From a virus (Duplodnaviria > Heunggongvirae > Uroviricota > Caudoviricetes), in the IMG/VR virus record IMGVR_UViG_2667527818_000007: DNA of 34,477 nt; one strand, given 5' to 3'. The position numbers and the translations under genes are program-made. Shown one piece after another: positions 584-27,962 of this stretch (its first letter is position 1; each line of letters opens with the position of its first letter). The notes beneath the pieces are model-generated. The model was not told where the DNA came from and searched no databases. It was given only the letters and a program-made list of their open reading frames with translations.

Positions 584-1597
584 TTACTCTACTGTGGACA
601 CTGTGTGGACACTCTCGGCCTCAGTACCACCTCTTAGCGGATTAAGAGAAATGGCGTCCTGAAGGTACTCTGGCGCAAAATGAGCGTAAACCATAGTTTG
701 CTCAATCCGCGTGTGACCTAGTATCCGTTGTAGCGTGATAATACTTCCTCCATTAATCATGAAATGAGTGGCAAAGCTGTGCCTTAGTGCATGTGTGGCT
801 TGCCCCATTGGCAAATCCGGTTTTATTGCTTTCATTGTTCGTCTGAAGCGAGGGTAATCAGCATCAGGGAATAAAAAACCTCGTTTGTTATCCGCGATCA
901 TTTTGGCAACAGCCTCTGAGATCGGGACGGTGCGTGGTTTGTTTGTTTTCGTTTTAACAAACGTGACGCGGTTATGGATGATATTTTCTGCTTTCAAACG
1001 AGCTGCTTCTCCCCAACGTGCTCCAGTACTCAGGCAAAGAATCGCAATCTTTTTGTTGTCGCCGTCAAGAGCAGCAAGCAGTAAGGCAATTTCTTCCTGC
1101 GTGAGATAGCCTGTGTCTGGTTTTTCCTCCTTAAGCCTTTTTGTCCCTCTGATAGGGTGCTCACCAAAGAATAACTCCGCTTCAATCAGGGCTGTAAACA
1201 TGCCGCTAATACATGTTAAATCACGATTGATACTCGAAGGTTTAATACCCTGACTTCTTCGGGTGGCGCAGTACTGGCTGATAAGCGATTTCGTAATTTG
1301 AAATGCGCATGGGTCATTCGTTATTTTTGTGAAGATTTCAATTTTTCCAAGATTAGATTTCCCATGCTCTTCGTGTTTACCCTTTAAATCCCACCAGATC
1401 TGTGTCAGCTCCGACAGACGTCGCTTGTCTGTTGGTTTTGATAGCCATTCTTTATTGTGGTGGTTGTACAACGTGTATTTCTCGAAAGCGACAGCTTCGC
1501 TTTTCTTATCAAACTTCCTACGGATGCGTTTTCCATTACGTCCAGTAGGGCGGATGTCCACTTCATATCGACCATCATCGAGTTTTTTGATTGCCAT
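584..1597 (-). CDS. int: tyrosine integrase (337 aa)
   Basis: Same length as P2 Int; C-terminal catalytic region with HALRHSFATH...LGHT...VYAHF (H-x-x-R and Tyr); adjacent to the att core. Confidence 0.9.
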   Translation of the reverse strand: MAIKKLDDGRYEVDIRPTGRNGKRIRRKFDKKSEAVAFEKYTLYNHHNKEWLSKPTDKRRLSELTQIWWDLKGKHEEHGKSNLGKIEIFTKITNDPCAFQITKSLISQYCATRRSQGIKPSSINRDLTCISGMFTALIEAELFFGEHPIRGTKRLKEEKPDTGYLTQEEIALLLAALDGDNKKIAILCLSTGARWGEAARLKAENIIHNRVTFVKTKTNKPRTVPISEAVAKMIADNKRGFLFPDADYPRFRRTMKAIKPDLPMGQATHALRHSFATHFMINGGSIITLQRILGHTRIEQTMVYAHFAPEYLQDAISLNPLRGGTEAESVHTVSTVE

Positions 1598-3894: not shown

Positions 3895-4166
3895 GTATTC
3901 GTATTGAAATTGGCGAACGTTATGTCGTTACCAGTGACAGCTTTCAGTTTATTCTCCACGAGAAAAAGAGAGCTGAAAGCGGTAAAAACGCCGGTCAGGA
4001 ATGGCTGGCGGTGGTTGGTTATTACCCGAAATTAAGCCAGCTCGTTTCCGGCCTGATGCATCACGATATTCTGACCGGAAGCGCAAAGTCTTTTGCTGAT
4101 TTAAACGCGCAGGTTGAGCAACTCAGCAAGCGTTGTTCAGAGGCTTTTGGCTCATATGGCCGTTAA
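3891..4166 (+). CDS. early-operon hypothetical protein (91 aa)
   Basis: Coupled ORF upstream of gene A; position of P2 orf83. Confidence 0.5.
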   Translation: MSIRIEIGERYVVTSDSFQFILHEKKRAESGKNAGQEWLAVVGYYPKLSQLVSGLMHHDILTGSAKSFADLNAQVEQLSKRCSEAFGSYGR

Positions 4167-6432
4167 AGCCTCCGGGCGTTTTGTCCCTCCGTCAGCATTT
4201 GCCGCAGGCACCGGTAAGACGTTTACCGGTGCTTATGCATGGAACGCGCCACGCGAGGCCGTCGGGCGCGAAAGACCCCTTACACGTGACGAGATGCGTC
4301 AGGTGCAAGGTGTTTTATCCACGATTAACCGCCTGCCTTACTTTTTGCGCTCGCTGTTTACTTCACGGTATGACTACATCCGGCGCAATAAAAGCCCGGT
4401 GCACGGGTTTTATTTCCTCACATCCACTTTTCAGCGTCGTTTATGGCCGCGCATTGAGCGTGTGAATCAGCGCCATGAAATGAACACCGACGCGTCGTTG
4501 CTGTTTCTGGCAGAGCGTGATCACTATGCGCGCCTGCCGGGAATGAATGACAAGGAGCTGAAAAAGTTTGCCGCCCGTATCTCATCGCAGCTTTTCATGA
4601 TGTATGAGGAACTCAGCGATGCCTGGGTGGATGCGCATGGCGAAAAAGAATCACTGTTTACGGATGAGGCTCAGGATCACCTGTATGGTCATGTTGCTGG
4701 CGCTGCACGAGCTTTCAATATTTCCCCTCTCTACTGGAAAAAATACCGTAAAAGACAGATGACCACGAGGCAGGCATATTCTGCCATTGCCCGTCTGTTT
4801 AACGATGAGTGGTGGACTCATCAGCTTAAAGGCCAGCGTATGCGCTGGCATGAAGCGTTACTGATAGCTGTCGGGGAGGTCAATAAAGACCGTTCTCCTT
4901 ATGCCAGTAAACACGCCATTCGTGATGTGCGTGCGCGCCGCCAGGCAAATCTGGAATTTCTTAAATCGTGTGACCTTGAAAACAGGGAAACCGGCGAGCG
5001 CATCGACCTTATCAGTAAGGTGATGGGCAGTATTTCTAATCCTGAAATTCGCCGGATGGAGCTGATGAACACCATTGCCGGTATTGAGCGTTACGCCGCT
5101 GCAGAGGGTGATGTGGGGATGTTTATCACGCTGACCGCGCCGTCAAAGTATCACCCGACACGTCAGGTAGGAAAAGGCGAAAGTAAAACCGTGCAGCTTA
5201 ATCACGGCTGGAACGATGAGGCATTTAATCCAAAGGATGCGCAGCGTTATCTCTGCCGTATCTGGAGCCTGATGCGCACGGCATTCAAGGATAATGATTT
5301 ACAGGTCTACGGTTTGCGTGTCGTCGAGCCACACCACGACGGAACGCCGCACTGGCATATGATGCTTTTTTGTAATTCACGCCAGCGTAACCAGATTATC
5401 GAAATCATGCGTCGCTATGCGCTCAAAGAGGATGGCGACGAAAGAGGAGCCGCGCGAAACCGTTTTCAGGCAAAACACCTTAACCGGGGCGGTGCTGCGG
5501 GATATATCGCGAAATACATTTCAAAAAACATCGACGGCTATGCACTGGATGGTCAGCTCGATAACGACACCGGCATGCCGCTGAAAGACACTGCAGCGGC
5601 TGTTACCGCATGGGCGTCAACGTGGCGCATCCCGCAATTTAAAACGGTTGGCCTGCCGACAATGGGGGCTTACCGTGAACTACGCAAATTGCCGCGCGGC
5701 GTCAGCATTGCTGATGAGTTTGACGAGCGCGTCGAGGCTGCACGCGCCGCCGCAGACAGTGGTGATTTTGCGTTGTATATCAGCGCGCAGGGTGGGGCAA
5801 ATGTCCCGCGCGATTGTCAGACTGTCAGAGTCGCCCGTAGCCCGTCGGATGAAGTTAACGAGTACGAGGAAGAAGTCGAGAGAGTGGTCGGCATTTACGC
5901 GCCGCATCTCGGCGCGCGTCATATTCATATCACCAGAACGACGGACTGGCGCATTGTGCCGAAAGTTCCGGTCGTTGAGCCTTTGACTTTAAAAAGCGGC
6001 ATCGCCGCGCCTCGGAGTCCTGTCAATAACTGTGGAAAGCTCACCGGTGGTGATACTTCGTTACTGGCTCCCACACCTTCTGAGCACGCCGCAGCAGTGC
6101 TTAATCTGGTTGATGACGGTGTTATCGAATGGAATGACCCGGAGGTCGTGAGGGCGCTCAGAGGTGCATTAAAATACGGCCTGAGAAGACCAAACCGTCA
6201 GCAAAGAAACGGAAGCCCGTTAAAACCGCATGAAATTGCACCATCGGCCAGACTGACCCGGTCTGAACGATTGCAAATCACCCGTATCCGCGTTGACCTT
6301 GCTCAGAACGGTATCAGGCCGCAGCGATGGGAGATTGAGGCGCTGGCGCGTGGGGCAACCGTAAATTATGACGGGAAAAAATTCAGATATCCGGTCGCTG
6401 ATGAGTGGCCGGGGTTCTCGTTACCCATTTGA
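4156..6432 (+). CDS. A: rolling-circle replication initiator gpA (HUH endonuclease)
   Basis: HUH-type motif HHDGTPHWHMMLF and tyrosine-containing YIAKYISK. The tracked ORF starts at a TTG at 4114; the ATG at 4156 (MAVKASGRF...) is the more plausible start. Confidence 0.85.
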   Translation: MAVKASGRFVPPSAFAAGTGKTFTGAYAWNAPREAVGRERPLTRDEMRQVQGVLSTINRLPYFLRSLFTSRYDYIRRNKSPVHGFYFLTSTFQRRLWPRIERVNQRHEMNTDASLLFLAERDHYARLPGMNDKELKKFAARISSQLFMMYEELSDAWVDAHGEKESLFTDEAQDHLYGHVAGAARAFNISPLYWKKYRKRQMTTRQAYSAIARLFNDEWWTHQLKGQRMRWHEALLIAVGEVNKDRSPYASKHAIRDVRARRQANLEFLKSCDLENRETGERIDLISKVMGSISNPEIRRMELMNTIAGIERYAAAEGDVGMFITLTAPSKYHPTRQVGKGESKTVQLNHGWNDEAFNPKDAQRYLCRIWSLMRTAFKDNDLQVYGLRVVEPHHDGTPHWHMMLFCNSRQRNQIIEIMRRYALKEDGDERGAARNRFQAKHLNRGGAAGYIAKYISKNIDGYALDGQLDNDTGMPLKDTAAAVTAWASTWRIPQFKTVGLPTMGAYRELRKLPRGVSIADEFDERVEAARAAADSGDFALYISAQGGANVPRDCQTVRVARSPSDEVNEYEEEVERVVGIYAPHLGARHIHITRTTDWRIVPKVPVVEPLTLKSGIAAPRSPVNNCGKLTGGDTSLLAPTPSEHAAAVLNLVDDGVIEWNDPEVVRALRGALKYGLRRPNRQQRNGSPLKPHEIAPSARLTRSERLQITRIRVDLAQNGIRPQRWEIEALARGATVNYDGKKFRYPVADEWPGFSLPI

Positions 6433-6691
6433 GTAAAAACACAACGTAATTTGATATGGCATTGAATGGCTTATGCGGAGCAGTTATGGGGCAGCAGAAG
6501 GTCAATAGCATGCTGAATTAGAAGGCTAAATGCTATTGAGTGACTAGCATGTCGGTAAGGACAGCCGTTTGATCCGGGTCATAAAAGGCCATCCATTTAG
6601 TCTAATAAAATCATTGCGGGTAACCTTATGTCGACGCATAATTCGTCTTGAGCGAAGTCTTGTCAGTCTTTCATCGTATTGATGATGGGCG

Positions 6692-6722
6692 CAAAAAAAC
6701 CACCCTGGCAGGTGGTTTTTTT
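6692..6722. terminator. bidirectional intrinsic terminator
   Basis: aaaaaaaccacc-ctggca-ggtggttttttt: GC stem flanked by an A-run and a T-run; sits between the end of the A operon (+) and the 3' end of the small minus-strand ORF. Confidence 0.65.
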
Positions 6723-6734
6723 GTTTGAAGCATA

Positions 6735-6848
6735 TTAAAGCATAATGCTGACATTGATATTACTGACGTTTACTGACAAACCACTCGGACTACCGTTTGG
6801 ATAGCCAAAGAGGGCCAGAACGAGAATGCAGTAATAGCATTTCTTCAT
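6735..6848 (-). CDS. candidate small hydrophobic peptide (37 aa; MKKCYYCILVLALFGYPNGSPSGLSVNVSNINVSIML)
   Basis: ATG at 6846..6848 (minus) preceded by strong SD (caggaggcaat-ATG) and followed by the bidirectional terminator; hydrophobic N-terminus. The longer 88-aa tracked ORF is probably an upstream extension. Confidence 0.4.
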   Translation of the reverse strand: MKKCYYCILVLALFGYPNGSPSGLSVNVSNINVSIML

Positions 6849-7326
6849 ATTGCCTCCTGTAAGTAGAGGGCAACTTCCACCGGTATATGCGCTTCTTAGG
6901 TGGAATGACTTTTGAGCGAAGTCTTGCCCTGAAATAATGCTCTGTTTAAACGCAAAGTGATTTGGCATATCACCGAACAGAGAGCCGGAAAAACACAACA
7001 TATAGTATGTCGTTGTTTCTAGACATACATTCTATGTTGTGTAACAAGGGCTTTGCATTAAACATGTTTGAGATTTTATTGATGTAGCTCAAAGTAAAAA
7101 ACAGAGACTACGGATGATAAGGTCTTGAAAGCAATGTAAATTTTTTAAAGTTGCCAATTGCTTAAAAATGTACAGTTGCGGTATGGCGTACTTAAAAAGC
7201 TATGCATGCAACAAGTGAATGTTTTTGCATGCGTTGGGGATGTCCGTTCAGGCTGCGTGCGGTCAGGACTGGTGCGGATCCATAGTATCTATGCAACTGC
7301 ATTAAAACCGCCCTGTGAAGCGGGCG

Positions 7327-7345
7327 GGCGAGGCGGGGAAAGCAC
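7327..7345. other. cos site (19-nt cohesive-end sequence ggcgaggcggggaaagcac)
   Basis: Matches my recollection of the P2 cohesive end; located upstream of Q/P at the vegetative genome end, as expected. Confidence 0.6.
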
Positions 7346-7522
7346 TGCGCGCTGGCGGTGGTGCTGATTTTATTTTTTCAGCGTCTCAGCGTCTCAGCGC
7401 GTCGTGACGGCGTTTGGATTGTGCGCCGGGGCGTTGGTGTGTCTGCGGGGTGTTTTGTGCGGTGGTGAGCGTGTGAGGGCGTGATGACGGGGTGTAAAAA
7501 AGCCGCCCGCAGGCGGCGATGT

Positions 7523-8557
7523 TCAGCCGTTGTCAGTGTCCAGTGAGTAGTTTTTAAAGCGGATGACCTCCTGACCGAGCCAGCCGTTTATCTCGCGGAT
7601 CCTGTCCTGTAACGGGATAAGCTCATTGCGGACAAAGACCTTTGCCACTTTCTCAATATCACCCAGCGACCCGACGTTCTCCGGCTTGCCGCCCATCAAC
7701 TGAAAGGGGATGCGGTGCGCGTCCAGCAGGTCAGCGGCGCTGGCTTTTTTGATATTAAAAAAATCGTCCTTCGTTGCCACTTCACTGAGCGGGATAATTT
7801 TAATGCCGTCAGCTTTCCCCTGCGGGGCATAGAGAAACAGGTTTTTAAAGTTGTTGCGGCCTTTCGACTTCACCATGTTTTCGCGAAGCATTTCGATATC
7901 GTTGCGATCCTGCACGGCATCAGTGACGTACATGATATATCCGGCATGAGCGCCGTTTTCGTAATACTTGCGGCGGAACAGCGTGGCCGACTCATTCAGC
8001 CAGGCAGAGTTAAGGGCGCTGAGATATTCCGGCAGACCGTACAGCTCCTGATTAATATCCGGCTCCAGCAGGTGAAACACGGAGCCGGGCGCGAAAGGTG
8101 TCGGCTCGTTGAAGGACGGCACCCACCAGTAAACATCCTCCTCCACGCCACGGCGGGTATATTTTGCCGGTGAGGTTTCCAGTCTGATGACCTTACCGGT
8201 GGTGCTGTAACGCTTTTCCAGAAACGCATTACCGAATACCAGAAAATCCAGCACAAAGCGGCTGAAATCCTGCTGAGAAAGCCACGGGTGTGGGATAAAC
8301 GTTGAGGCCAGAATATTACGTTTGACGTAAATCGGTGAGCTGTGATGCACGGCAGCACGCAGGCTTTTTGCCAGACCGGTAAAGCTGACCGGTGGCTCAT
8401 ACCATCTGCCGTTACTGATGCACTCGACGTAATCCAGAATGTCACGGCGGTCGAGTACCGGCACCGGCTCACCAAAGGTGAATGCCTCCATTTTCGGGGC
8501 GCTGGCGGTCATTTTTTTTGCCGCAGGTTGCGGTGTTTTCCCTTTTTTCTTGCTCAT
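7523..8557 (-). CDS. Q: portal protein gpQ (344 aa)
   Basis: Same length as P2 Q; precedes the terminase gene on the minus strand, reading toward cos. Confidence 0.85.
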   Translation of the reverse strand: MSKKKGKTPQPAAKKMTASAPKMEAFTFGEPVPVLDRRDILDYVECISNGRWYEPPVSFTGLAKSLRAAVHHSSPIYVKRNILASTFIPHPWLSQQDFSRFVLDFLVFGNAFLEKRYSTTGKVIRLETSPAKYTRRGVEEDVYWWVPSFNEPTPFAPGSVFHLLEPDINQELYGLPEYLSALNSAWLNESATLFRRKYYENGAHAGYIMYVTDAVQDRNDIEMLRENMVKSKGRNNFKNLFLYAPQGKADGIKIIPLSEVATKDDFFNIKKASAADLLDAHRIPFQLMGGKPENVGSLGDIEKVAKVFVRNELIPLQDRIREINGWLGQEVIRFKNYSLDTDNG

Positions 8558-10329
8558 CAGTAAAACTCCAGAATGGTGGATGTCAGCGGGGTGCTGATAC
8601 CGGCGGTGAGTGGCTCATTTAACAGGGCGTGCATGGTCGCCCAGGCGAGGTCGGCGTGGCTGGCTTCCTCGCTACGGCTGGCCTCATAGGTGGCGCAGCG
8701 TCCGCTGCTGGTCATGGTCTTGCGGATAGCCATAAACGAGCTGGTGATGTCGGTGGCGCTGACGTCATATTCCAGACAGCCACGGCGGATGACGTCTTTT
8801 GCCTTGAGCACCATTGCGGTTTTCATTTCCGGCGTGTAGCGGATATCGCGCGCGGCGGGATAGAACGAGCGCACGAGCTGGAACACGCCGACACCGAGGC
8901 CGGTGGCATCAATTCCGATGTATTCGACGTTGTATTTTTCGGTGAGTTTGCGGATGGATTCCGCCTGAGTGGCAAAGTCCATGCCTTTCCACTGGTGACG
9001 CTCAAGTATTCTGAATTTACCTCCGGCCACCACCGGCGGTGCCAGCACCACGCATCCGGCGCTGTCGCCACGGTGTGACGGGTCGTAACCAATCCATACC
9101 GGGCGGGAGCCGAACGGATTGGCGGCAAACGGCGCATAGTCTTCCCATTCTTCCAGCGTGTCGACCATGCAGCGTTGCAGCTCCTCGAACGGGAACACCG
9201 ACGCCTTGTCGTCAACAAATTCACACATGAACAGGTTTTTAAAATCGTCGGCGCTGTTTTCACGTTTGAGCTGCTCAATGTCGAACAGCGTGCAGCCACC
9301 TTTCAGGGCGTCCTCAATGGTGACAATCTGCCGCCACTGGCCGTCCGCACAGAGAAGCCCCCCGGCAAGGGCGTTATGACTGACGTCGATTTCCACGCGT
9401 TCGGCGGCGCTGGCGCGTCCCCGGTTGAACAGTTCACCCGACCAGAATGGGTAGGCGTCGTGCGCCAGCGTGGACGGGGTGGAGAAATAGGTCGAGCGCA
9501 GGTGGCTCTGTGAGGCCATACCTGATGCCACCTTACGCAGTACCTGAAAATTCGGGATCCAGAAAATCTCGTCGACGTACAGGTCGCCGTTATGGCTCTG
9601 TGCGGTGTTGGAGTTGGTGCCGAGAAAAATCAGTTTTGCGCCGTTATTGCCCAGGACAATCGGGTCACCGGTCAGGTCAACGTCAACCAGCCGGGCAAAG
9701 GCGATGATGTATTCGCGGAACACATACGCCTGCGTTTTACTGGCCGACAGAAAAATCTGGTTATGACCGGTTTTCAGGGCGCGCAGCAGCGCCTCGCGGG
9801 AAAAATAAAACGTCGCGCCAATCTGGCGGGATTTCAGGATATCGCGGATGCGGTGCTCAAGCCCGGCGCGATACCAGTGCAACTGATAGTCGAAAGACTG
9901 CTCAAAGAAAATCTGCTCCAGCTTTTCGATGGCCTCGTCACTGAAAAAATTCTTTTTCGGTTTGCGACGCCCGCCTTTGTTGCGGTTAGCGACGTTCGGA
10001 TTAAGGTCTGCCTCGTTGCCGGTCTGACTGTAGCGGTTTACCCGTGCCAGTCGTTCAATCTGGCGTCCGAGCAGGTCAATTTCCTTGAAGTCACCGCCGG
10101 TTTTCTGCGGTTTGATGATGAGCTGGGTCAGCCGCGCTTCCAGACTCATTTCGACACGGCTGATGGGGGCAACGCTGTCCCAGCCGTCGCGCTGTTTCCA
10201 GCTCTGCACCGTCGGGCGTTTCATCTGCAACATGGCGGCAATCTGCGGCACGGAAAATCCCTGCCAGTACAGCAGCGCCGCCTGACGACGCGGGTCGTGT
10301 AAAAGAGTGGTGTCTGTGGTGATGGTCAT
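8557..10329 (-). CDS. P: terminase large subunit gpP (590 aa from internal start MTITTD...)
   Basis: Length matches P2 P when started at the Met at 10329; the tracked ORF extends 10 codons upstream. Confidence 0.85.
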   Translation of the reverse strand: MTITTDTTLLHDPRRQAALLYWQGFSVPQIAAMLQMKRPTVQSWKQRDGWDSVAPISRVEMSLEARLTQLIIKPQKTGGDFKEIDLLGRQIERLARVNRYSQTGNEADLNPNVANRNKGGRRKPKKNFFSDEAIEKLEQIFFEQSFDYQLHWYRAGLEHRIRDILKSRQIGATFYFSREALLRALKTGHNQIFLSASKTQAYVFREYIIAFARLVDVDLTGDPIVLGNNGAKLIFLGTNSNTAQSHNGDLYVDEIFWIPNFQVLRKVASGMASQSHLRSTYFSTPSTLAHDAYPFWSGELFNRGRASAAERVEIDVSHNALAGGLLCADGQWRQIVTIEDALKGGCTLFDIEQLKRENSADDFKNLFMCEFVDDKASVFPFEELQRCMVDTLEEWEDYAPFAANPFGSRPVWIGYDPSHRGDSAGCVVLAPPVVAGGKFRILERHQWKGMDFATQAESIRKLTEKYNVEYIGIDATGLGVGVFQLVRSFYPAARDIRYTPEMKTAMVLKAKDVIRRGCLEYDVSATDITSSFMAIRKTMTSSGRCATYEASRSEEASHADLAWATMHALLNEPLTAGISTPLTSTILEFY

Positions 10330-10502
10330 GAATACCTCGCCGTGATGAATACACGGCAAGGCTACTGAGTCGCGCCCCGCGATTCGCTAAGGTGCTGTTG
10401 TGTCAGTGATAAGCCATCCGGGACTGATGGCGGAGGATGCGTATCGTCGGGAAACTGATGCCGACATGTGACTCCTCTAATCACTATTCAGGACTCCTGA
10501 CA

Positions 10503-19189: not shown

Positions 19190-21508
19190 ATGAGCACAAA
19201 ATTCAGAACCGTTATCACCACTGCCGGTGCAGCAAAGCTGGCAGCGGCAACCGCACCGGGAGGGCGGAAGGTCAACATTACCACGATGGCCGTCGGGGAT
19301 GGCGGTGGTAAATTGCCTGTCCCGGATGCCGGACAGACCGGGCTTATCCACGAAGTCTGGCGACATGCGCTGAACAAAATCAGCCAGGACAAACGAAACA
19401 GTAATTATATTATCGCAGAGCTGGTTATTCCGCCGGAGGTGGGCGGTTTCTGGATGCGTGAGCTTGGCCTGTACGATGATGCAGGAACGTTAATTGCCGT
19501 GGCGAACATGGCCGAAAGTTATAAGCCTGCCCTTGCCGAAGGCTCAGGGCGTTCGCAGACCTGCCGCATGGTCATCATCGTCAGCAGTGTGGCCTCAGTG
19601 GAGCTGACTATTGACACCACAACGGTGATGGCAACGCAGGATTACGTTGATGACAAAATTGCAGAGCACGAACAGTCACGACGTCACCCGGACGCCTCTC
19701 TGACCGCAAAAGGTTTTACTCAGCTAAGCAGCGCGACCAACAGCACGTCTGAAACACTGGCCGCAACGCCGAAAGCGGTAAAGGCCGCCTATGACCTTGC
19801 TAACGGGAAATATACTGCGCAGGATGCCACCACGGCGCGAAAAGGCCTTGTTCAGCTCAGTAGTGCGACTAACAGCACGTCTGAAACGCTCGCCGCAACA
19901 CCAAAAGCGGTAAAAGCAGCGTATGACCTTGCTAACGGGAAATATACCGCACAGGACGCCACCACAGCGCGAAAAGGCCTTGTCCAGCTCAGTAGTGCCA
20001 CCAACAGCGATTCTGAAACGCTTGCGGCAACGCCAAAGGCGGTTAAGACAGCGTATGACCTTGCTAACGGGAAATACACTGCACAGGATGCCACCACGGC
20101 GCGGAAAGGCCTTGTCCAGCTCAGTAGTGCCATCAACAGCGATTCTGAGACGCTGGCTGCAACACCAAAAGCGGTGAAGTCTGCCTATGACAATGCTGAA
20201 AAACGTCTTCAGAAAGATCAGAATGGTGCGGATATTCCGGGAAAGGATACCTTCACGAAAAATATCGGTGCCTGTCGTGCTTATAGCGGCGCTTTGAGCA
20301 CTGAAGCCGGAAACTGGACAACCGCTCAGTTTATTGAATGGCTGGATTCCCGTGGTGCATTTAATCATCCGTACTGGATGTGCAAAGGCTCCTGGTCATA
20401 TGCAAATAACAAAATCATTACGGATACCGGATGTGGTGATATCCACCTGGCTGGTTGTGTCGTCGAGGTCATGGGAACAAAATCTGCAATCACTATTCGA
20501 GTGACCACGCCGACAACATCAAGCGGTGGCGGTACAACCAGCGCGCAATTCACTTACATTAATCATGGGGACGGCTACTCCCCCGGCTGGCGTCGTGACT
20601 GGAATCGTCAGGGCGACGCAATGACCGGAACGATTAATCAGGATGGCGGAAGCCAGAATGCCTATATGTCTACGGCCTTATGTTCAGGCACCAGAGGCGG
20701 CAAAAAATATCTCAGAAAGTTTCGTGGTGGAGAAGGAGACACTATCTGGCATGAAACAGTGCAGGGCGGGGTAATTCGCTGGGCGACAGGAAACTATGAC
20801 GCTCAGGAAGAATTATCACTCAGCTCCGCTTATGGTCTCCGTTCTAGAGGTGAAATTACATCACTCAGTGCTAATGGTCTGCGCATTGCTTATGGCAATT
20901 ATGGATTCTTTATCAGGAATGATGGTGGCAGCACATATTTAATGCTGACGGCCTCTGGTGATAAATTTGGGACATGGAACGGTTTAAGGCCGCTGACTAT
21001 CAATAACGCTAATGGCGGAGTGTCAATGGGGCATGGCCTGAGTGTTACTGGTGATATTGCCTCAAGTACCAAAGTACGTGCCGGTAGCGGGAAAAAGTTC
21101 ACGGTCAGCAGCAGAAATACATCCACGAAGGAAGCCGCATTCAATTTGTGGGGAAACTCAAGTCGTCCTGTGGTGGCTGAATTAGGTGATGATGCAGGCT
21201 GGCATTTTTACAGTCAGAGAAATACAGATAACAGCATCACTTTTGCTGTTAACGGGCAGGTATCACCATCTAACTATAGTAATTTTGATTCACGCTATGT
21301 CCGGGATATCCGGCTTGGTGGTGCTGCCACATACAAACCTGCGAACAATGGCATGACATGGACACATCAGGCACCGTCCGGGTGTGTATATTCCGGCATT
21401 ATTGTTCAGGATACCGGCTCAAACTCTGCCGATAACATTGGTGGCATATATTACAGACCGGTGCAGAAATACATTAACGGGACATGGTATAACGTGGCGC
21501 AGGTATAA
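19190..21508 (+). CDS. H: tail fiber protein gpH (772 aa) with internal tandem repeats
   Basis: Conserved N-terminus, then about 3.6 tandem copies of a 41-aa unit and a variable C-terminal receptor-binding region; followed by G. Confidence 0.85.
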   Translation: MSTKFRTVITTAGAAKLAAATAPGGRKVNITTMAVGDGGGKLPVPDAGQTGLIHEVWRHALNKISQDKRNSNYIIAELVIPPEVGGFWMRELGLYDDAGTLIAVANMAESYKPALAEGSGRSQTCRMVIIVSSVASVELTIDTTTVMATQDYVDDKIAEHEQSRRHPDASLTAKGFTQLSSATNSTSETLAATPKAVKAAYDLANGKYTAQDATTARKGLVQLSSATNSTSETLAATPKAVKAAYDLANGKYTAQDATTARKGLVQLSSATNSDSETLAATPKAVKTAYDLANGKYTAQDATTARKGLVQLSSAINSDSETLAATPKAVKSAYDNAEKRLQKDQNGADIPGKDTFTKNIGACRAYSGALSTEAGNWTTAQFIEWLDSRGAFNHPYWMCKGSWSYANNKIITDTGCGDIHLAGCVVEVMGTKSAITIRVTTPTTSSGGGTTSAQFTYINHGDGYSPGWRRDWNRQGDAMTGTINQDGGSQNAYMSTALCSGTRGGKKYLRKFRGGEGDTIWHETVQGGVIRWATGNYDAQEELSLSSAYGLRSRGEITSLSANGLRIAYGNYGFFIRNDGGSTYLMLTASGDKFGTWNGLRPLTINNANGGVSMGHGLSVTGDIASSTKVRAGSGKKFTVSSRNTSTKEAAFNLWGNSSRPVVAELGDDAGWHFYSQRNTDNSITFAVNGQVSPSNYSNFDSRYVRDIRLGGAATYKPANNGMTWTHQAPSGCVYSGIIVQDTGSNSADNIGGIYYRPVQKYINGTWYNVAQV
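19718..20190 (+). repeat. about 3.6 tandem copies of a 123-nt (41-aa) repeat inside H
   Basis: LSSATNS(T/D)SETLAATPKAVKAAYDLANGKYTAQDATTARKGLVQ repeated; nucleotide copies differ mainly at synonymous positions. Confidence 0.85.
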
Positions 21509-21511
21509 TTT

Positions 21512-22036
21512 ATGCAGCATTTGATAAATATAACGGCGGGTAATCCAAAAACAGTTGAACAATATCAATTGACAAAGGGCTTTGATGTTGTCTGGTTTTT
21601 TACAGAAGATGGTAAGAACTGGTACGAAGAACAAAAGTATTTTGCTGATGACACGATAAAAATAGCGTACGACAAAGATAATATTATCCGCTATGTGGAA
21701 AAGGATGTGACAGCTATCAGGCCGGATGGATTAAGTGTTGTTGAAGTGCCGGATATTACTGCTAACCGACGGGCGGACATTTCAGGGGGCTGGATGTTTA
21801 AGGACGGCAAAGTGATTAAACGCATTTATACGGCAGAGGAATTACAACAGCAGGCAGAAATTCGGAAAGCCAGACTTCTTGCAGATGCTGAATCCGTGAT
21901 TTTGCCACTGGAGCGCGCTGTCAGGCTGAATATGGCAACAGATGAGGAGCGCAGCCGACTGGAAGCATGGGAACGCTACAGCGTTCTGGTCAGTCGTGTG
22001 GATCCTACAAATCCTGAATGGCCTGAAATGCCGTAA
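21512..22036 (+). CDS. G: tail fiber assembly chaperone gpG (174 aa)
   Basis: Immediately downstream of H; length close to P2 G. Confidence 0.8.
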
Positions 22037-22261
22037 TAAGTTGTATGAGCTTACATATCTATGGCACAGAGTAAATCCTAATCTGACAGTCCGCTCTGTG
22101 CCAGCTGCGGAAGTTTATAATATGTTTATGGAGTTTGGTGTAAAATCAATTAACTAATTGATTTATATTGATTTTGTTGTGGGGGGTAGCAAAGCATTGT
22201 TTTCAATGCAATATACAGATGAGTAAATTTTACTGCCTAATCTAATAGAGTGTAAGCCACA

Positions 22262-22302
22262 CATAAAAATTAACTATGGCTGATCATTATACAATCAGCC
22301 AT
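22262..22302 (-). terminator. probable intrinsic terminator of the 451-aa cargo gene
   Basis: 9-bp stem atggctgat/atcagccat (22276..22302) followed on the minus strand by a T-rich run, about 10 nt after the stop codon. Confidence 0.5.
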
Positions 22303-22311
22303 AGCTGAGAG

Positions 22312-23667
22312 CTATTTGTCACTAGCCATATCTTTCTTGCATTTTGGACATGGCACCAACATATCTTCTTTCACCAAGTAATAATATGGAATTATTATGC
22401 TATAACCCTGACAAGTTATATGTTCATATGCGATCGTTGGTGTCATATCTTCTTTATCATCGGATTCTATCGGAACCTCCCTAAACATTAATTCAGGTAG
22501 TGGTAAATCCTCTGGGTTATATAATGTCACCATCAATGGTTGTCTTTGGTATGCTTCCTCATTATTTGGAGTTTGACCTGAAGCCAAGTCGATTAACTTA
22601 ACCATATTAATCTGTTCATTGCTAACACAATAATTTACTAATGTATTTAAAGCTTTCTCTTTGAATAAACGATGATATGGACCGTGTGCTTTACAGTTAA
22701 TTAACTCATTAAACATGCCAAAATTAAATTCGTAAGAATAATCTCCAGCAGTTAAAGGTAGTCTATAATAATCACTTATATTTACATTCCCTTTTTGAGT
22801 ATTATTCAACAATGTAATCATTAAATTGTGGAAGTTAACTAAGGAACAACCATCACGATCAGGAAAGCCATGTACAATCATGTCAGTTGCATTAATCATC
22901 CTATCTGAATTATGACTCAGATATTCATTGTTGTTACCAAATAAAAAATAGCCTTTATTTAATATGAAAACTGCATTTGGTAGTAATTTTGTTTCATTAC
23001 TCTGGATTTCTTCCTTAAGAGCAGATACTATATCATCCCAGTGCATTTCTGTTTCATAAGCAAAAACAACTCCAAACCCTGCGAGTGATTTGTTATTTAT
23101 ATAAAATCCATGGTCATTCTTTTTTCTTTGTAGTTTTTTATATGATGCAATGTTTTTTATGGCGCTGCTTAATTCTTTCCTGGTAAGGTTTGATTTTACT
23201 TGAATAACTCCATATACATTTTCAGAAGGGTAAACATCATATATTTCGTTACGCTGCATTAGCACATATCCATCATCTGCATCATATAATGCGATGTCAA
23301 TCTCGTTGCTAAGATGTCCTGTAGCAGCAGCAACTCTTACGCTTCTTGAAGATACAGCATAACGCCCTGGGAATAAACCGCTTAATTTCAAGAAGTTTTT
23401 TAGTATATTTTCTCGAGCATTGCCTAAGTCTCTTGGATGGGATATATCCCTCGTTTTCTCGTATTCAAATTCAATATTTTTTTGAAAGTAATTCAGTTCT
23501 CTGATAATGCCATGAAAATCTCGTTCTTTACTACGAATATCGTTCACATGTTTATTTAAATTTGAAAAATACTCACGTATATTCATTTCCTTTTTATCAA
23601 ACTCTGCACGTCGTTCTTTTTCAGCTTTTGTTATCCGAACTTTCCTAGTTTTTTGTTGCTTAGTCAT
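22312..23667 (-). CDS. hypothetical protein (451 aa), partner of the SIR2-like gene; possible nuclease-like core
   Basis: Intact AT-rich ORF in the G-FI hotspot; charged Lys/Arg/Glu-rich N-terminus; weak PD-(D/E)xK-like pattern (IDIALYD...GVIQVKS, aa about 124-158); C-terminal Cys cluster (...CQGY...CPKC). Function not established. Confidence 0.55.
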   Translation of the reverse strand: MTKQQKTRKVRITKAEKERRAEFDKKEMNIREYFSNLNKHVNDIRSKERDFHGIIRELNYFQKNIEFEYEKTRDISHPRDLGNARENILKNFLKLSGLFPGRYAVSSRSVRVAAATGHLSNEIDIALYDADDGYVLMQRNEIYDVYPSENVYGVIQVKSNLTRKELSSAIKNIASYKKLQRKKNDHGFYINNKSLAGFGVVFAYETEMHWDDIVSALKEEIQSNETKLLPNAVFILNKGYFLFGNNNEYLSHNSDRMINATDMIVHGFPDRDGCSLVNFHNLMITLLNNTQKGNVNISDYYRLPLTAGDYSYEFNFGMFNELINCKAHGPYHRLFKEKALNTLVNYCVSNEQINMVKLIDLASGQTPNNEEAYQRQPLMVTLYNPEDLPLPELMFREVPIESDDKEDMTPTIAYEHITCQGYSIIIPYYYLVKEDMLVPCPKCKKDMASDK

Positions 23668-24141
23668 TATATATTAACCCTATTAATAAGCGTATAAGTA
23701 AAGAAGATCGTATCATATCAAATACTATCAAATTCTGAGAGCAGTTTTTATAATAGTCAATCATATAGAAAGTAAAATCCTCGTGCTCAGCCTAAATATC
23801 TGCGCCGAATATCACTACATTTTTCCAGACCACTCTTCCCCTAACCTCCGCTCCTTGCTCAGCGCGGACCTTCTGTCCAGTGAGGTAGTCCGCTACGAGC
23901 AAGAAGTGGACCATGTTGTACTAATTATTAGAGAGTAAATCATTATGTATCGGATTGAATCTTGACTCACAGGTGGCACAATGTTTTCATATTGTAATTT
24001 GTGTATATATGCAGATGGTTACAGTTTCAACTATGTTTTTGTAATTTTAAAAATAGAATTTATTGTTTGTTTATTGATGTGTTTGTATTAAAGAATTCAT
24101 TTTATAGCCCTCTATAGAGGGCTCTACAAAGATAGTCAGTA

Positions 24142-25656
24142 TTATTGTGACGAGTACCGTTTAAAATCATATAAGCTAACAAGTCTTTTATAATCTGAGG
24201 ATGATATTTCAAGGGTAACTCCTTCCCTCAAATATCCTTCGATATTATCAAGGTCAATATTGTTTACATATGTGTTGTAAAAAATAACTCGAACGAGTTT
24301 GTACGGTTTGAATCCGAGGGAAATGATTTCATCCACTGTGTCGCAGTTAATTCTTTCAGATTCATCAATAGAATTAAAATAGGTGGTAAGATTTGTTTCC
24401 TGATTATTTTTAAGTTGCTCAATATTTTGTATTTCATTACATATTGTGGAAAATCCATGCGCTGTAAAATACTGTGTTCGGGTTACTTTTATTTTATTTA
24501 ATAGCATGATTAGCGCATCATTTTTGGAGTCCATGATTTCAAAATAATTCATAACCATTTCGGATGCTGATTGATAATGGTAAGTTATTTTCTGCACAGA
24601 TCCAACAGCCATGACTAGTTCGTCATTAGCTAAGTTATCTAAATCACCAACTATTTTCACTTTAACAGTACCGCCTTCTTTTATTTTTCTCATTACTCCT
24701 TCAACCTTTCTAATATCCATAGATGATACTGGAAGTTTAAGGTTTATTAACCCCTCGAAAATCCCTTGAAAATTATCGGTTTTAATCTTGTTGATTTTAA
24801 TATTACCAATATTTTCGATAACCACATCATGTTCAAGCACTTCAAGGGAGTTGTTGTCTGCGTCTCGTTCAATAAGCAGAAAATTCTTTCTAACCTTATC
24901 GGCTAAATCGGAATCTTTAGGAATATAAGAAAAAATAGTTTTCAGAATCTCTCTGATATTCTCATCGCTTATGCTATAGCCGATAAATATAATAGGATTG
25001 TGAATGAATAAAGAAATGAGCTGGGCTCTAATTAAGTGATTATTGATTTTAAATCTTTCATAATCGGAATCTGAAATCACAATAGATTCAGGATGTGAAA
25101 CACAACCGTGTATTTTATATACAGATCCGTAAGGGTTACTTAGCAGAATATCATTCCCAATGATTGGATTAAACCCAATCAATGTCTCAATGAATCTATC
25201 ATAATTCGTTGTAATAACTGAGCCTATATTTCGACTTGCTTTTGCAAATAATTCCATTTCTGTTGCATACTTATCATCATCATTTATTTGATGTAGATCT
25301 ACAAGTTCAGATATAAATATTTTCATGCGACTGGCAGAGTAGTTTCCTGAAGCAGCATACTCGTAGTATTTGTCATTTATTCTTTTAAACTTACCGTTCC
25401 TATCAGCTTCTAATAATCTATTGAACTCTGTTTCAATTTCGCTAGCTACTTTTGGTAGATCAATTTCACCTAAAGAATTAGCGTTCCTGCCTGCGGAGTC
25501 AAAATAAAAGTCATGACTCCCTTTCATTTCGTAAACAATCTTTTTTAGAAGTTCTGACCATGAGTAAGTGCCTACCAGGTATCTCCGGCTAAACCCTGCA
25601 CCAACAAACACTACTGGATGGTTTACATAAGATTCCATGAATTCACTAATATTCAT
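24142..25656 (-). CDS. SIR2-like (sirtuin-fold) protein (504 aa) with an uncharacterised C-terminal domain; candidate NAD+-consuming defence effector
   Basis: Sirtuin-family signature order in the N-terminal half: VFVGAGFS (GAGxS, aa 19-23), TTNYD (aa 149-153), KIHG (aa 181-184). The C-terminal half of about 250 aa is not Gly-rich and not recognised. SD ggagaagg upstream of the ATG. Confidence 0.7.
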   Translation of the reverse strand: MNISEFMESYVNHPVVFVGAGFSRRYLVGTYSWSELLKKIVYEMKGSHDFYFDSAGRNANSLGEIDLPKVASEIETEFNRLLEADRNGKFKRINDKYYEYAASGNYSASRMKIFISELVDLHQINDDDKYATEMELFAKASRNIGSVITTNYDRFIETLIGFNPIIGNDILLSNPYGSVYKIHGCVSHPESIVISDSDYERFKINNHLIRAQLISLFIHNPIIFIGYSISDENIREILKTIFSYIPKDSDLADKVRKNFLLIERDADNNSLEVLEHDVVIENIGNIKINKIKTDNFQGIFEGLINLKLPVSSMDIRKVEGVMRKIKEGGTVKVKIVGDLDNLANDELVMAVGSVQKITYHYQSASEMVMNYFEIMDSKNDALIMLLNKIKVTRTQYFTAHGFSTICNEIQNIEQLKNNQETNLTTYFNSIDESERINCDTVDEIISLGFKPYKLVRVIFYNTYVNNIDLDNIEGYLREGVTLEISSSDYKRLVSLYDFKRYSSQ

Positions 25657-26118
25657 TTATCCTTCTCCATAACAGGAATATTTATAGCTGATAAAGCATA
25701 CAGCATCTTTGATGAAGATGCCTTCAATTTTGTTCACTCATCATCCTATTCTACCTGTTTCATGACACAACAAGCCCAGAACAGCAGTATGTATGCCATT
25801 GGGGGAGCATATGGATTCAATTAAGTTACGGTCAGAATATCTTACATTCATCCAAAGTGAGGCAATATATATAATTTAGCAAATTAACATTGTCACCACT
25901 GCCAGTTAGGGTTATGGGAATAAACAAGGCCTACAGGGATTCTTAGCAACTGTACCCACAGATCGTTGATAATAATCCTCTCAGTTGATTATTTTTCCTC
26001 AGATCACTGAGAAATACAGGCTATTTCCGCTTTACGCTCAAAGCAGACTGTCAGATTTGTTAGCGTTTGGGCTATGTAAATTGTCAGTTGGAAAATGAGT
26101 GAGTGCAAATCATGACAG

Positions 26119-26240: not shown

Positions 26241-27431
26241 ATGAGTGACTATCATCATGGCGTGCAGGTGCTGGAGATTAACGACGGCACCCGCGTCATT
26301 TCCACCGTATCCACCGCCATTGTCGGCATGGTCTGCACGGCCAGCGATGCGGATGCGGAAACCTTCCCCCTCAATAAACCGGTGCTGATTACCAATGTGC
26401 AGAGCGCAATTGCAAAGGCCGGTAAAAAAGGCACGCTGGCGGCATCGTTGCAGGCTATCGCTGACCAGTCAAAACCGGTCACCGTTGTCGTGCGTGTGGA
26501 AGACGGCAGCGGCGACGACGAGGAAACGAAACTCGCGCAGACCGTTTCCAATATCATCGGCACCACCGACGAAAACGGTCAGTACACCGGACTGAAAGCC
26601 CTGCTGGCGGCGGAGTCGGTAACCGGTGTTAAACCGCGCATTCTCGGTGTGCCGGGACTGGACACCAAAGAGGTTGCCGTCGCACTGGCATCAGTCTGTC
26701 AGAAGCTGCGCGCTTTCGGGTATATCAGCGCATGGGGCTGTAAAACCATTTCCGAGGTGAAAGCCTACCGCCAGAATTTCAGCCAGCGTGAGCTGATGGT
26801 CATCTGGCCGGATTTCCTCGCATGGGATACGGTCACCAGTACCACCGCCACCGCGTATGCCACCGCCCGTGCGCTGGGTCTGCGCGCTAAAATCGACCAG
26901 GAGCAGGGCTGGCATAAAACGCTGTCCAATGTCGGGGTGAACGGTGTTACCGGCATCAGCGCCTCTGTATTCTGGGATTTGCAGGAGTCCGGCACTGATG
27001 CTGACCTGCTTAACGAGTCAGGCATCACAACGCTGATTCGCCGCGACGGTTTCCGCTTCTGGGGTAACCGTACCTGCTCCGATGACCCGCTGTTCCTCTT
27101 TGAAAACTACACCCGCACCGCGCAGGTGCTGGCCGACACGATGGCTGAGGCGCACATGTGGGCGGTGGACAAGCCTATCACCGCAACGCTGATTCGCGAC
27201 ATCGTTGACGGCATCAATGCCAAATTCCGTGAGCTGAAAACAAACGGCTATATCGTGGATGCGACCTGCTGGTTCAGCGAAGAATCCAACGATGCGGAAA
27301 CCCTCAAGGCCGGAAAACTGTATATCGACTACGACTATACACCGGTGCCTCCTCTTGAAAACCTGACCCTGCGCCAGCGTATTACCGATAAATACCTGGC
27401 AAATCTGGTCACCTCGGTTAACAGCAATTAA
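26241..27431 (+). CDS. FI: tail sheath protein gpFI (396 aa)
   Basis: Same length and order as P2 FI. Confidence 0.9.
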   Translation: MSDYHHGVQVLEINDGTRVISTVSTAIVGMVCTASDADAETFPLNKPVLITNVQSAIAKAGKKGTLAASLQAIADQSKPVTVVVRVEDGSGDDEETKLAQTVSNIIGTTDENGQYTGLKALLAAESVTGVKPRILGVPGLDTKEVAVALASVCQKLRAFGYISAWGCKTISEVKAYRQNFSQRELMVIWPDFLAWDTVTSTTATAYATARALGLRAKIDQEQGWHKTLSNVGVNGVTGISASVFWDLQESGTDADLLNESGITTLIRRDGFRFWGNRTCSDDPLFLFENYTRTAQVLADTMAEAHMWAVDKPITATLIRDIVDGINAKFRELKTNGYIVDATCWFSEESNDAETLKAGKLYIDYDYTPVPPLENLTLRQRITDKYLANLVTSVNSN

Positions 27432-27443
27432 GGAGCCTGACCG

Positions 27444-27962
27444 ATGGCAATGCCGCGAAAACTCAAGTTAATGAACGTCTTTCTGAACGGCTACAGCTAT
27501 CAGGGCGTCGCGAAGTCCGTCACGCTGCCAAAACTGACCCGTAAGCTCGAAAACTATCGAGGTGCGGGGATGAACGGCAGCGCACCGGTAGACCTCGGCC
27601 TTGATGACGATGCGCTGTCAATGGAGTGGTCGCTCGGGGGCTTCCCGGATTCGGTTATCTGGGAGCTTTACGCCGCAACCGGTGTGGATGCCGTACCGAT
27701 TCGTTTTGCTGGCTCTTACCAGCGCGACGATACCGGCGAAACGGTGGCCGTCGAAGTGGTCATGCGTGGCCGTCAGAAAGAAATCGACACCGGCGAGGGT
27801 AAACAGGGAGAAGACACCGAGTCGAAAATCTCCGTGGTCTGCACTTATTTCCGGCTGACGATGGACGGTAAGGAGCTGGTCGAAATCGACACCATCAACA
27901 TGATTGAGAAGGTGAACGGCGTCGACCGGCTGGAGCAACACCGCCGCAATATCGGCCTGTGA
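27444..27962 (+). CDS. FII: tail tube protein gpFII (172 aa)
   Basis: Same length and order as P2 FII. Confidence 0.9.
   Translation: MAMPRKLKLMNVFLNGYSYQGVAKSVTLPKLTRKLENYRGAGMNGSAPVDLGLDDDALSMEWSLGGFPDSVIWELYAATGVDAVPIRFAGSYQRDDTGETVAVEVVMRGRQKEIDTGEGKQGEDTESKISVVCTYFRLTMDGKELVEIDTINMIEKVNGVDRLEQHRRNIGL

Follow-up and report, generated by a model that had tools for sequence, protein, structure and literature searches.

NucC is the textbook example of a nuclease that is held in check by a second messenger. Its active site consists of I72-D73 followed 30 residues later by E104-A-K106, with D73 and E104 holding Mg2+, and the D73N mutant is inactive; cyclic tri-adenylate (cA3) is contacted by R53, by the adenine-stacking Y81 and by T226/V227, the gate loop is latched by H136 and Y141, and the N-terminal alpha0 helix packs two trimers into a hexamer (Lau et al., bioRxiv 10.1101/694703). 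A further described system is Damona, a phage-protective single-gene DUF6602 cassette of the chromosomal integron of Vibrio cholerae N16961, which is matched by Cas PD_DExK profiles and by small-endonuclease profiles of CBASS (anti-phage signalling that is based on cyclic oligonucleotides), and of which homologues have been reported in prophages (Darracq et al., bioRxiv 10.1101/2024.07.02.601686). Here, we analysed a gene for a 451-amino-acid (aa) protein with a DUF6602 domain, which is carried next to a SIR2 gene in the IMG/VR virus record IMGVR_UViG_2667527818_000007, a stretch of 34,477 nucleotides (nt) that is referred to as the window and represents a complete P2-like prophage of Escherichia coli. 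With somewhat better than even confidence, we consider that this gene encodes an autonomous, single-protein anti-phage nuclease, in which a private zinc domain replaces the control by a second messenger.

The 451-codon open reading frame (ORF), which starts with ATG and occupies positions 22312-23667 on the minus strand, as an earlier note made from the DNA letters had placed it, is, judged by its homologues, a real and conserved gene. An identical protein is deposited in RefSeq as WP_000166330.1 ("DUF6602 domain-containing protein"), and the protein database search returned full-length relatives in 115 clusters at 90% identity, with E-values reaching 1e-248. The relatives belong to Proteobacteria, cyanobacteria, Acidobacteria, Myxococcota and one Firmicute, the hosts including Enterobacterales, Pseudomonas, Vibrio, Aeromonas, Acinetobacter, Rhizobium and Acetobacter and, further, cyanobacteria, Lucifera, Archangium and Acidobacteria. 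The earlier note saw no recognisable family signature, a view that is overturned by three sets of matches. Residues 72-179 matched positions 4-104 of the 104 positions of the Pfam DUF6602 profile (PF20247) with 78.4 bits against a gathering cut-off of 27, by which the protein is a bona fide member of this family; the PADLOC models of CRISPR-associated PD_DExK and NucC were matched at 1.7e-24 and 5e-17, respectively; and the solved structures in PDB that were matched by sequence were those of NucC only, at 3e-7 with the single sequence and at 3.9e-17 with the family profile. The PHROG match was weak, and tblastn of 50,697 deposited phage genomes gave no match to the protein, the family being seen only in prophages within genomes, IMG/VR contigs and plasmids.

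The nuclease domain has the alpha-beta-beta-beta-alpha-beta core fold of the PD-(D/E)xK superfamily together with the trimer and pocket embellishments that are specific to NucC. By profile alignment, D73, E104 and K106 of NucC correspond to D124, Q156 and K158, and the counterpart of the NucC motif IDx30EAK is I123-D124, followed after 31 residues by Q156-V-K158. E86, D124 and K158 are invariant both in the 74-sequence alignment used for residue counts and in the 147 full-length members used for the states of positions 122 and 156. The earlier note had proposed a D...(E/Q)xK arrangement with D129 as the key Asp, and the motifs on which it relied are located as described (IDIALYD at 123-129, GVIQVKS at 153-159, CQGY at 419-422 and CPKC at 440-443). 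Its guess that IALYD (125-129) and residues 151-161 form beta strands agrees with the predicted structure, and Q156-V-K158 does belong to the family motif, but the Asp of this arrangement is D124, which is invariant and aligned with the catalytic D73 of NucC. Position 129 varies across the 74 sequences (D in 52, N in 19, S in 2 and E in 1), and D129 ends the strand opened by D124 in the predicted structure; because NucC and short DUF6602 proteins also conserve the equivalent residue, D129 is, on the alignments, a fold landmark and not the catalytic Asp.

The metal-binding carboxylate appears to have been relocated rather than lost. The window protein has Glu two residues upstream of the catalytic Asp (S-N-E-I-D) and Gln in Q-V-K, and in NucC and the short DUF6602 proteins of Acinetobacter and Streptomyces the two positions are Q or A and E, respectively. 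Among the 147 members, positions 122/156 are E/Q in 130, Q/E in 12, Q/Q in 3, E/S in 1 and Q/S in 1, and E/E occurs in none, such that an acid is present at either position in 143; Gln occupies the (D/E) position in 133 members, of which 130 have E122 two residues before D124. A Fisher test on the E/Q swap gave p = 4e-15, but the members are not phylogenetically independent, and a neighbour-joining tree accounts for all the states with about six changes, so that this p value is not independent evidence. If the interpretation is correct, the exchange between E122 and Q156 would be a clean natural case of a catalytic acid shifting within a PD-(D/E)xK site. No description of this acid swap or of the C-terminal domain was found in the literature searched, where DUF6602 itself is mentioned by a single paper.

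Residues 293-451 form a compact alpha/beta domain, the domain-only model having a predicted local distance difference test (pLDDT) score of 90.0. No structural relative of this domain was found in PDB, nor in the BFVD viral models at E<=0.001. When 1.84 billion representative proteins were scanned exhaustively for the domain with HMMER, 97 hits were obtained, in every full-length one of which the domain is C-terminal, and DUF6602 preceded it in all nine distant full-length hits tested, indicating at the level of sequence and profile comparison that the domain is private to this family and that the two-domain architecture is fixed. C325, H328, C440 and C443 are invariant in the 74 sequences and present in 146 of the 147 members, and C347 is 97% conserved. 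C325 and H328 are located at the turn of a beta hairpin, and C440 and C443 where the last helix begins; structural zinc sites classically combine a knuckle with the N-terminus of a helix. From this arrangement and the conservation, the four residues probably bind zinc. The earlier suggestion of a metal-binding C-terminal Cys cluster is supported for C440 and C443, which together with C325 and H328 are likely metal ligands, but not for C419, which is Cys in only 12 of the 74 sequences.

At the other end of the protein, the strong charge pointed out in the earlier note was confirmed, with 17 K/R and 10 D/E among the first 60 residues. The profile alignment to Serratia NucC begins at profile position 30, matched to NucC residue 6, and the N-terminal helix may be equivalent to alpha0 of NucC and share its role in trimer-to-hexamer packing. 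Many family members have a Lys/Arg-rich C-terminal tail, and the charged N-terminal 50 residues and the basic C-terminal tails would fit contact with nucleic acid.

These features could also be expected of a type IV-like restriction enzyme that is constitutively active, with the zinc domain reading a modification or structure of phage DNA, such that phage DNA is cut and the host is spared. The restriction-endonuclease fold, the lack of a methyltransferase partner in the cassette, the basic N- and C-terminal tails, which suit DNA binding, a zinc module that could bind DNA, and the location of the gene near other restriction-like cargo in similar hotspots are all in line with such an enzyme. By far the closest relatives are, however, NucC proteins, which are non-specific and gated, and the C-terminal domain is unlike any known modified-base reader or DNA-binding fold; we regard this explanation as unlikely.

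The earlier note called the protein a partner of the SIR2 gene and suggested that it could be the sensor or a second effector of the system. This is not supported: both genes are also found by themselves elsewhere, at about 95% DNA identity, and about 38 other contexts of the DUF6602 gene show no conserved neighbour. In 5,426 complete E. coli genomes surveyed for co-occurrence, a close DUF6602 gene was present in 23, of which 12 carry it in the P2 hotspot together with the SIR2 gene and 11 carry it, at 96.2% identity, without the SIR2 gene. In strain JNU (L001), which was the one inspected, the solo gene adjoins the integrase of a lambdoid prophage, and the other ten solo genomes share the match boundaries of JNU. 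The SIR2 gene was present in 13 genomes, including one without DUF6602, strain NADC1036 (L002), where an AbiH gene and hokD flank it in a lambdoid prophage. As the homology to the solo DUF6602 cassette stops at 23869 and that to the solo SIR2 cassette starts at 23843, the window contains two cassettes that abut.

More distant relatives gave a similar picture, and conserved co-occurrence with SIR2 across lineages was not observed. A DUF6602 relative is without a SIR2 neighbour in 25 of 27 genomes of other species, six of seven viral contigs with a family member lack SIR2, and a SIR2 gene is nearby in only 2 of about 38 other contexts. In one of these two exceptions, a degraded DUF6602 gene adjoins a true ThsA of Thoeris (1.5e-155), and in the other the SIR2 gene is of a different type and divergently oriented; both represent clustering in defence islands, not a conserved pair. 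The degraded gene, in Stutzerimonas xanthomarina (L027 5709-8844), has an internal deletion, with residues 8-90 and 265-451 matched, and lies directly downstream of a Thoeris-like pair of ThsA and a 183-aa ORF. When conserved neighbour genes were sought at 29 family loci, no neighbour family appeared in more than 4 of the 29. Solo distant relatives were located in an AlpA/integrase/H-NS island, in 15 Vibrio parahaemolyticus plasmids, in an integrase/Bro-N/DUF927 element of Acinetobacter baumannii and in the post-replication hotspot of a lambdoid viral contig.

A two-gene system, in which SIR2 and the nuclease cooperate, with, for example, one of them sensing and both being effectors through nicotinamide adenine dinucleotide (NAD+) depletion and DNA cleavage, seems rather improbable on these grounds. 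The genes are adjacent and on the same strand in a defence hotspot, the identical pair travels together in all the P2-like contexts read, across tail fibres of 709, 736 and 772 aa, and some SIR2 gene is present no more than 2 kb away from two other family members. Against cooperation, a gap of 474 bp lies between the two genes, an 18-bp palindrome immediately follows the SIR2 stop codon, each gene lies between boundary elements of its own, the DUF6602 gene has its own strong terminator-like hairpin, the two other SIR2 neighbours are from different families, as described above, and the SIR2 protein matches, at full length, the PADLOC single-gene candidate PDC-S25 (1.9e-144) as well as phrog_2695 (1e-137). 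Promoter-like sites were not above chance, and nothing convincing was found among small ORFs between the SIR2 and DUF6602 genes, which were sought as antitoxin or regulator. About 230 C-terminal residues of the SIR2 protein are without a family assignment, and this protein would likely be a second sensor-effector fusion. The locus would best be annotated as two stacked single-gene systems rather than as one SIR2 system, which changes which constructs and mutants are informative.

To evaluate control by a messenger, the NucC pocket was judged on the equivalents of R53, Y81 and the gate loop, T226/V227 being not mappable. The R53 equivalent, R102, is R in 47, K in 19, S in 5, I in 2 and N in 1 of the 74 sequences, being basic in 66 (89%), and the Y81 equivalent, D132, is D in 43, N in 16 and E in 15, and is never aromatic. 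Within the model, variability is highest and confidence lowest (pLDDT about 67) at the gate-loop position, segment 180-197, which holds a hairpin loop that varies in length and sequence and lacks the H136/Y141 latch. Neither a cyclase nor a type III CRISPR gene was a conserved neighbour at the 29 family loci, and no cyclase was found in the solo contexts inspected (the lambdoid prophage, the AlpA island, the Vibrio plasmids, the A. baumannii element and the viral contig). The island in the window consists of the SIR2 and DUF6602 genes only, without an operon of a cGAS/DncV-like nucleotidyltransferase (CD-NTase) of CBASS or a type III CRISPR locus. At locus L039, a type I-F cas cluster (Csy2, Csy3, Csy4 and Cas1), which is not type III, lies 3.4 kb from the gene. 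A cA3-gated mechanism is unlikely, because the mapped pocket residues are not kept and a conserved cyclase or type III CRISPR neighbour is lacking. In a more general form, the protein could be an orphan effector awaiting a nucleotide signal from CBASS, type III CRISPR or another system of the host, for which the complete NucC fold including its embellishments, the mostly basic R53 equivalent and the hairpin at the gate-loop position may be cited; with D, N or E at the Y81 position throughout, an unlatched loop, no conserved cyclase or CRISPR neighbour and a family-specific extra domain that is always present, this is very unlikely. Least probable of all is a role outside defence, as a nuclease of the mobile element (in recombination, host takeover or addiction) or as an inactive structural or regulatory protein, which would fit the Gln at the E104 position of most members, the absence of a match in the deposited phage genomes and the weak PHROG match but is at odds with the invariant D124, K158 and E86, the Glu that is relocated rather than lost, the placement as cargo in elements that are unrelated to one another (prophages of P2-like and of lambdoid type, satellite-like islands, plasmids), the location away from any fixed site in a phage life-cycle module and the GC content, which is foreign to the prophage.

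Under the preferred reading, that of an autonomous nuclease, the enzymatic part would be a complete NucC-type nuclease with a metal site of E86, E122, D124, Q156 and K158, and it would be controlled in cis by the C-terminal zinc domain with the aid of the charged N-terminal helix. The zinc module would hold the nuclease latent until a phage-derived cue, either protein or nucleic acid, releases or assembles it, and the outcome would be largely non-specific DNA cleavage and aborted infection. The SIR2 gene would form another single-gene cassette, independent of the first and stacked with it in this hotspot. Functional support for this mechanism comes by analogy from NucC and Damona. As a tentative and rather doubtful specification, the protein could be a messenger-independent NucC that has lost the pocket and in which the zinc domain, with its orphan fold, senses a phage component and drives an oligomeric on-switch. 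Several points weigh against the preferred reading: the sensor role of the C-terminal domain is argued purely by elimination; the R53 equivalent is mostly basic in the alignment, so some small-molecule ligand is possible; the metal-binding E104 of NucC is replaced by Gln, making activity dependent on a presumed compensation by E122; the clustering of the five active-site residues and that of the four zinc ligands are both deduced from alignment and secondary structure; and in P2-like prophages the identical protein is always accompanied by the SIR2 gene. As a messenger-independent NucC, the protein would unite sensor and effector of an immune system in one chain and would offer a new sensor fold to characterise.

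The setting of the gene is that of mobile cargo. The same prophage region is present in RefSeq genomes at 99.3-99.9% identity. A 4-kb cargo island of 31-35% GC, foreign to the about 55% GC of the surrounding prophage, separates the tail-fibre assembly gene from the sheath gene, and its two genes, for the 504-aa SIR2 protein and the 451-aa DUF6602 protein, are both on the minus strand. The island thereby occupies the Z/fun locus of P2, a known secondary P2 defence hotspot inside the tail genes (PMC13586616). The main P2 defence hotspot (old/tin, from replication gene A to portal) corresponds to window positions 6433-7522, about 1.1 kb, and contains no ORF of more than 88 aa, so that this prophage has its cargo at Z/fun instead. 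A P2-like prophage of strain MN06021 (NZ_CM129879.1) has lost all of the DUF6602 gene but its final 367 bp, which are 100% identical and lie between the genes for tail-fibre assembly and sheath; this fragment, equivalent to window positions 22312-22678, is a deletion remnant of the island. An Rfam scan of the island gave nothing at E<=1, so the GC-richer intergenic stretch is not a known RNA, and it turned out to be the cassette junction.

Each cassette is flanked by imperfect palindromes of 22-23 nt, which are of two types, with the consensus TCYGCTnnTnGCTCAnAGCGGAC for type A and TCYGCTnnnTGCCAnnnGCGGA for type B. The homologies to the solo cassettes end and begin at a composite junction, in which type A, 20 nt and a type B-like copy follow one another and which folds as a DNA hairpin (-14.3 kcal/mol, z -2.98). 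Where cassettes are stacked, the two types make up such a composite hairpin with 17-20 nt separating A from B. The whole two-gene island is flanked by a 33-nt inverted repeat at 22080-22112 and 26025-26057, 76% complementary and 3912 nt apart, comprising the outer palindromes and CTGACAG/CTGTCAG. Copies were also found at other loci, two Citrobacter loci among them; positions are given in the table. In E. coli NADC1036, an AbiH gene and a 274-aa hypothetical gene with a weak LeoBC hit form one cassette (L002 3824-5914), which is bounded by the same palindromes and stacked beside the solo SIR2 cassette and hokD. A degenerate pattern scan of IMG/VR for type A gave at least 120 stretches in at least 95 distinct contexts, and a type B copy lies 17-20 nt downstream of type A in 15 of the listed 95 contexts. 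Ten ORFs sampled beside type A were PD-T7-1, DzbA, a GmrSD/NsnA-like protein, a HEPN protein, a thymidylate-synthase-like protein, a major facilitator superfamily transporter and four unknowns; the first four are of defence type, and type A often adjoins genes of this kind. A BLAST search of E. coli genomes with the 81-nt junction matched only the same island, because the element is too short and too diverged, and neither an Rfam family nor a description of the boundary element was found. In a 2026 study of P2/P4 repertoires, the route by which defence genes reach unrelated elements without flanking homology was described as unclear. The palindromes could act in recombination as a linker, by which defence cassettes move from one prophage to an unrelated one, for example between P2-like and lambdoid prophages, and would then be a candidate answer to this question; alternatively, they are possibly an insulator for cassette shuffling.

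Table. Features of the DUF6602 gene, its cassette and the surrounding prophage (window positions, except for the last five lines, which give positions in the named loci).
Feature	Position	Strand	Basis or remark
DUF6602/NucC-like protein gene, 451 aa, ATG start	22312..23667 (including stop)	-	ORF and full-length homologues
Charged helical N-terminal extension, residues 1-50	23518..23667	-	Composition; AlphaFold2 (AF2) helix 14-46
NucC-type restriction-endonuclease-fold nuclease domain, residues ~51-292	22792..23517	-	
E86, invariant helix glutamate of the putative active site	23410..23412	-	Aligns with conserved NucC Glu
Predicted core catalytic motif E122-I-D124...Q156-V-K158	23194..23304	-	Alignment with NucC
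Family-private C-terminal alpha/beta domain, residues 293-451	22315..22791	-	
C325-x2-H328, putative zinc knuckle in beta hairpin	22684..22695	-	Between strands 322-325 and 329-332
C440-x2-C443, putative second zinc half-site	22339..22350	-	Start of last helix, 441-450
Terminator-like hairpin directly after DUF6602 stop	22272..22306	-	16-pair stem, then T-rich tail
DUF6602 cassette, extent as found alone	22060..23869	.	94.6% identity to E. coli JNU (L001)
SIR2 gene, 504 aa, separable neighbour	24142..25656	-	Pfam SIR2_2, 4.4e-24
SIR2 cassette, extent as found alone	23843-26049		Homology to solo copy
Type B palindrome (TCCGCTCTGTGCCAGCTGCGGA) at cassette 3' side	22090..22111	.	Same element at same cassette end in L001
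Composite junction	23847..23910	.	Type A 23847-23868, 20 nt, type B-like 23889-23910
Type A palindrome, outer edge of SIR2 cassette	26026-26047		
Integrase	584-1597		
Replication gene A	4114-6432		
Portal and terminase	7523-10359		
Tail fibre and assembly genes	19190-22036		
Sheath and tube	26241-27962		
Palindrome copies in L001	6029, 7784		Solo DUF6602 cassette ends
Palindrome copies in L002	3612, 3654, 6005, 8183		Solo SIR2 and AbiH cassettes
Palindrome copies in L060	5648, 7536, 7576, 9242		Around 42%-identical homologue and neighbouring cassette
Palindrome copy in L004	2629		
Palindrome copies in L005	2774, 7767		

Among known systems, a precedent for the exchange between E122 and Q156 would be given by the CCGG-family type II enzymes (NgoMIV, Cfr10I, Bse634I, SgrAI and Kpn2I). 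Cfr10I and NgoMIV likewise have another residue in place of the acid at the (D/E)xK position, and the acid is supplied from elsewhere. Unlike these enzymes, the window protein has no cognate methyltransferase and no sign of sequence specificity, and it is much closer to NucC. A pairing of nuclease and zinc module that is similar in concept was found on the mobilisable A. baumannii plasmid pA2503 (L037 2214-4327), which carries an operon-like trio of Abi, DUF6602 (281 aa) and a SEC-C zinc protein (109 aa, CxxC...CxxC). This DUF6602 protein is 27% identical over residues 61-239 and has the ancestral A/E at positions 122/156, and the zinc module is a separate protein of SEC-C type without detected similarity to the C-terminal domain studied here; the trio may be a split analogue of the nuclease-plus-zinc-module architecture.

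Damona, compared by its description only, shares with the window gene the single-gene organisation, the DUF6602 domain, the mobile cassette and the same profile matches. No V. cholerae protein was present among the 115 and 163 family hits or in a broadened DUF6602/NucC profile search, and a cluster look-up of ten representatives named only Aeromonas and cyanobacteria, with no V. cholerae. Because of this absence from the family hits, Damona probably represents a different, likely shorter DUF6602 lineage.

The closest comparison is with NucC (PDB 6p7p, 6q1h, 6uxf and 7zgv), the effector of CBASS and type III CRISPR. The landmarks H-P, G, E, P-x-R-Y, S-x-x-I-D and V-K-S are common to both proteins, the catalytic Asp and Lys are conserved in both, and the position of alpha0 is occupied here by the N-terminal helix. 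NucC has about 241 aa, whereas the protein described here has 451, owing to a 50-residue charged N-terminal extension and a 159-residue private, putative zinc domain; its motif is E-I-D, x31, Q-V-K in place of Q-I-D (Q71, D73), x30, E-A/V-K; the cA3 contacts of Y81 and the gate loop are not conserved; and NucC sits beside a CD-NTase or Cas10 complex, which this gene does not. As far as can be read from sequence, the 451-aa protein resembles NucC at its catalytic end and departs from it in its exact motif, in its cA3 pocket and in its operon context. A NucC fold that is kept while its pocket is swapped for a zinc domain would show how immune effectors are rewired to new sensors.

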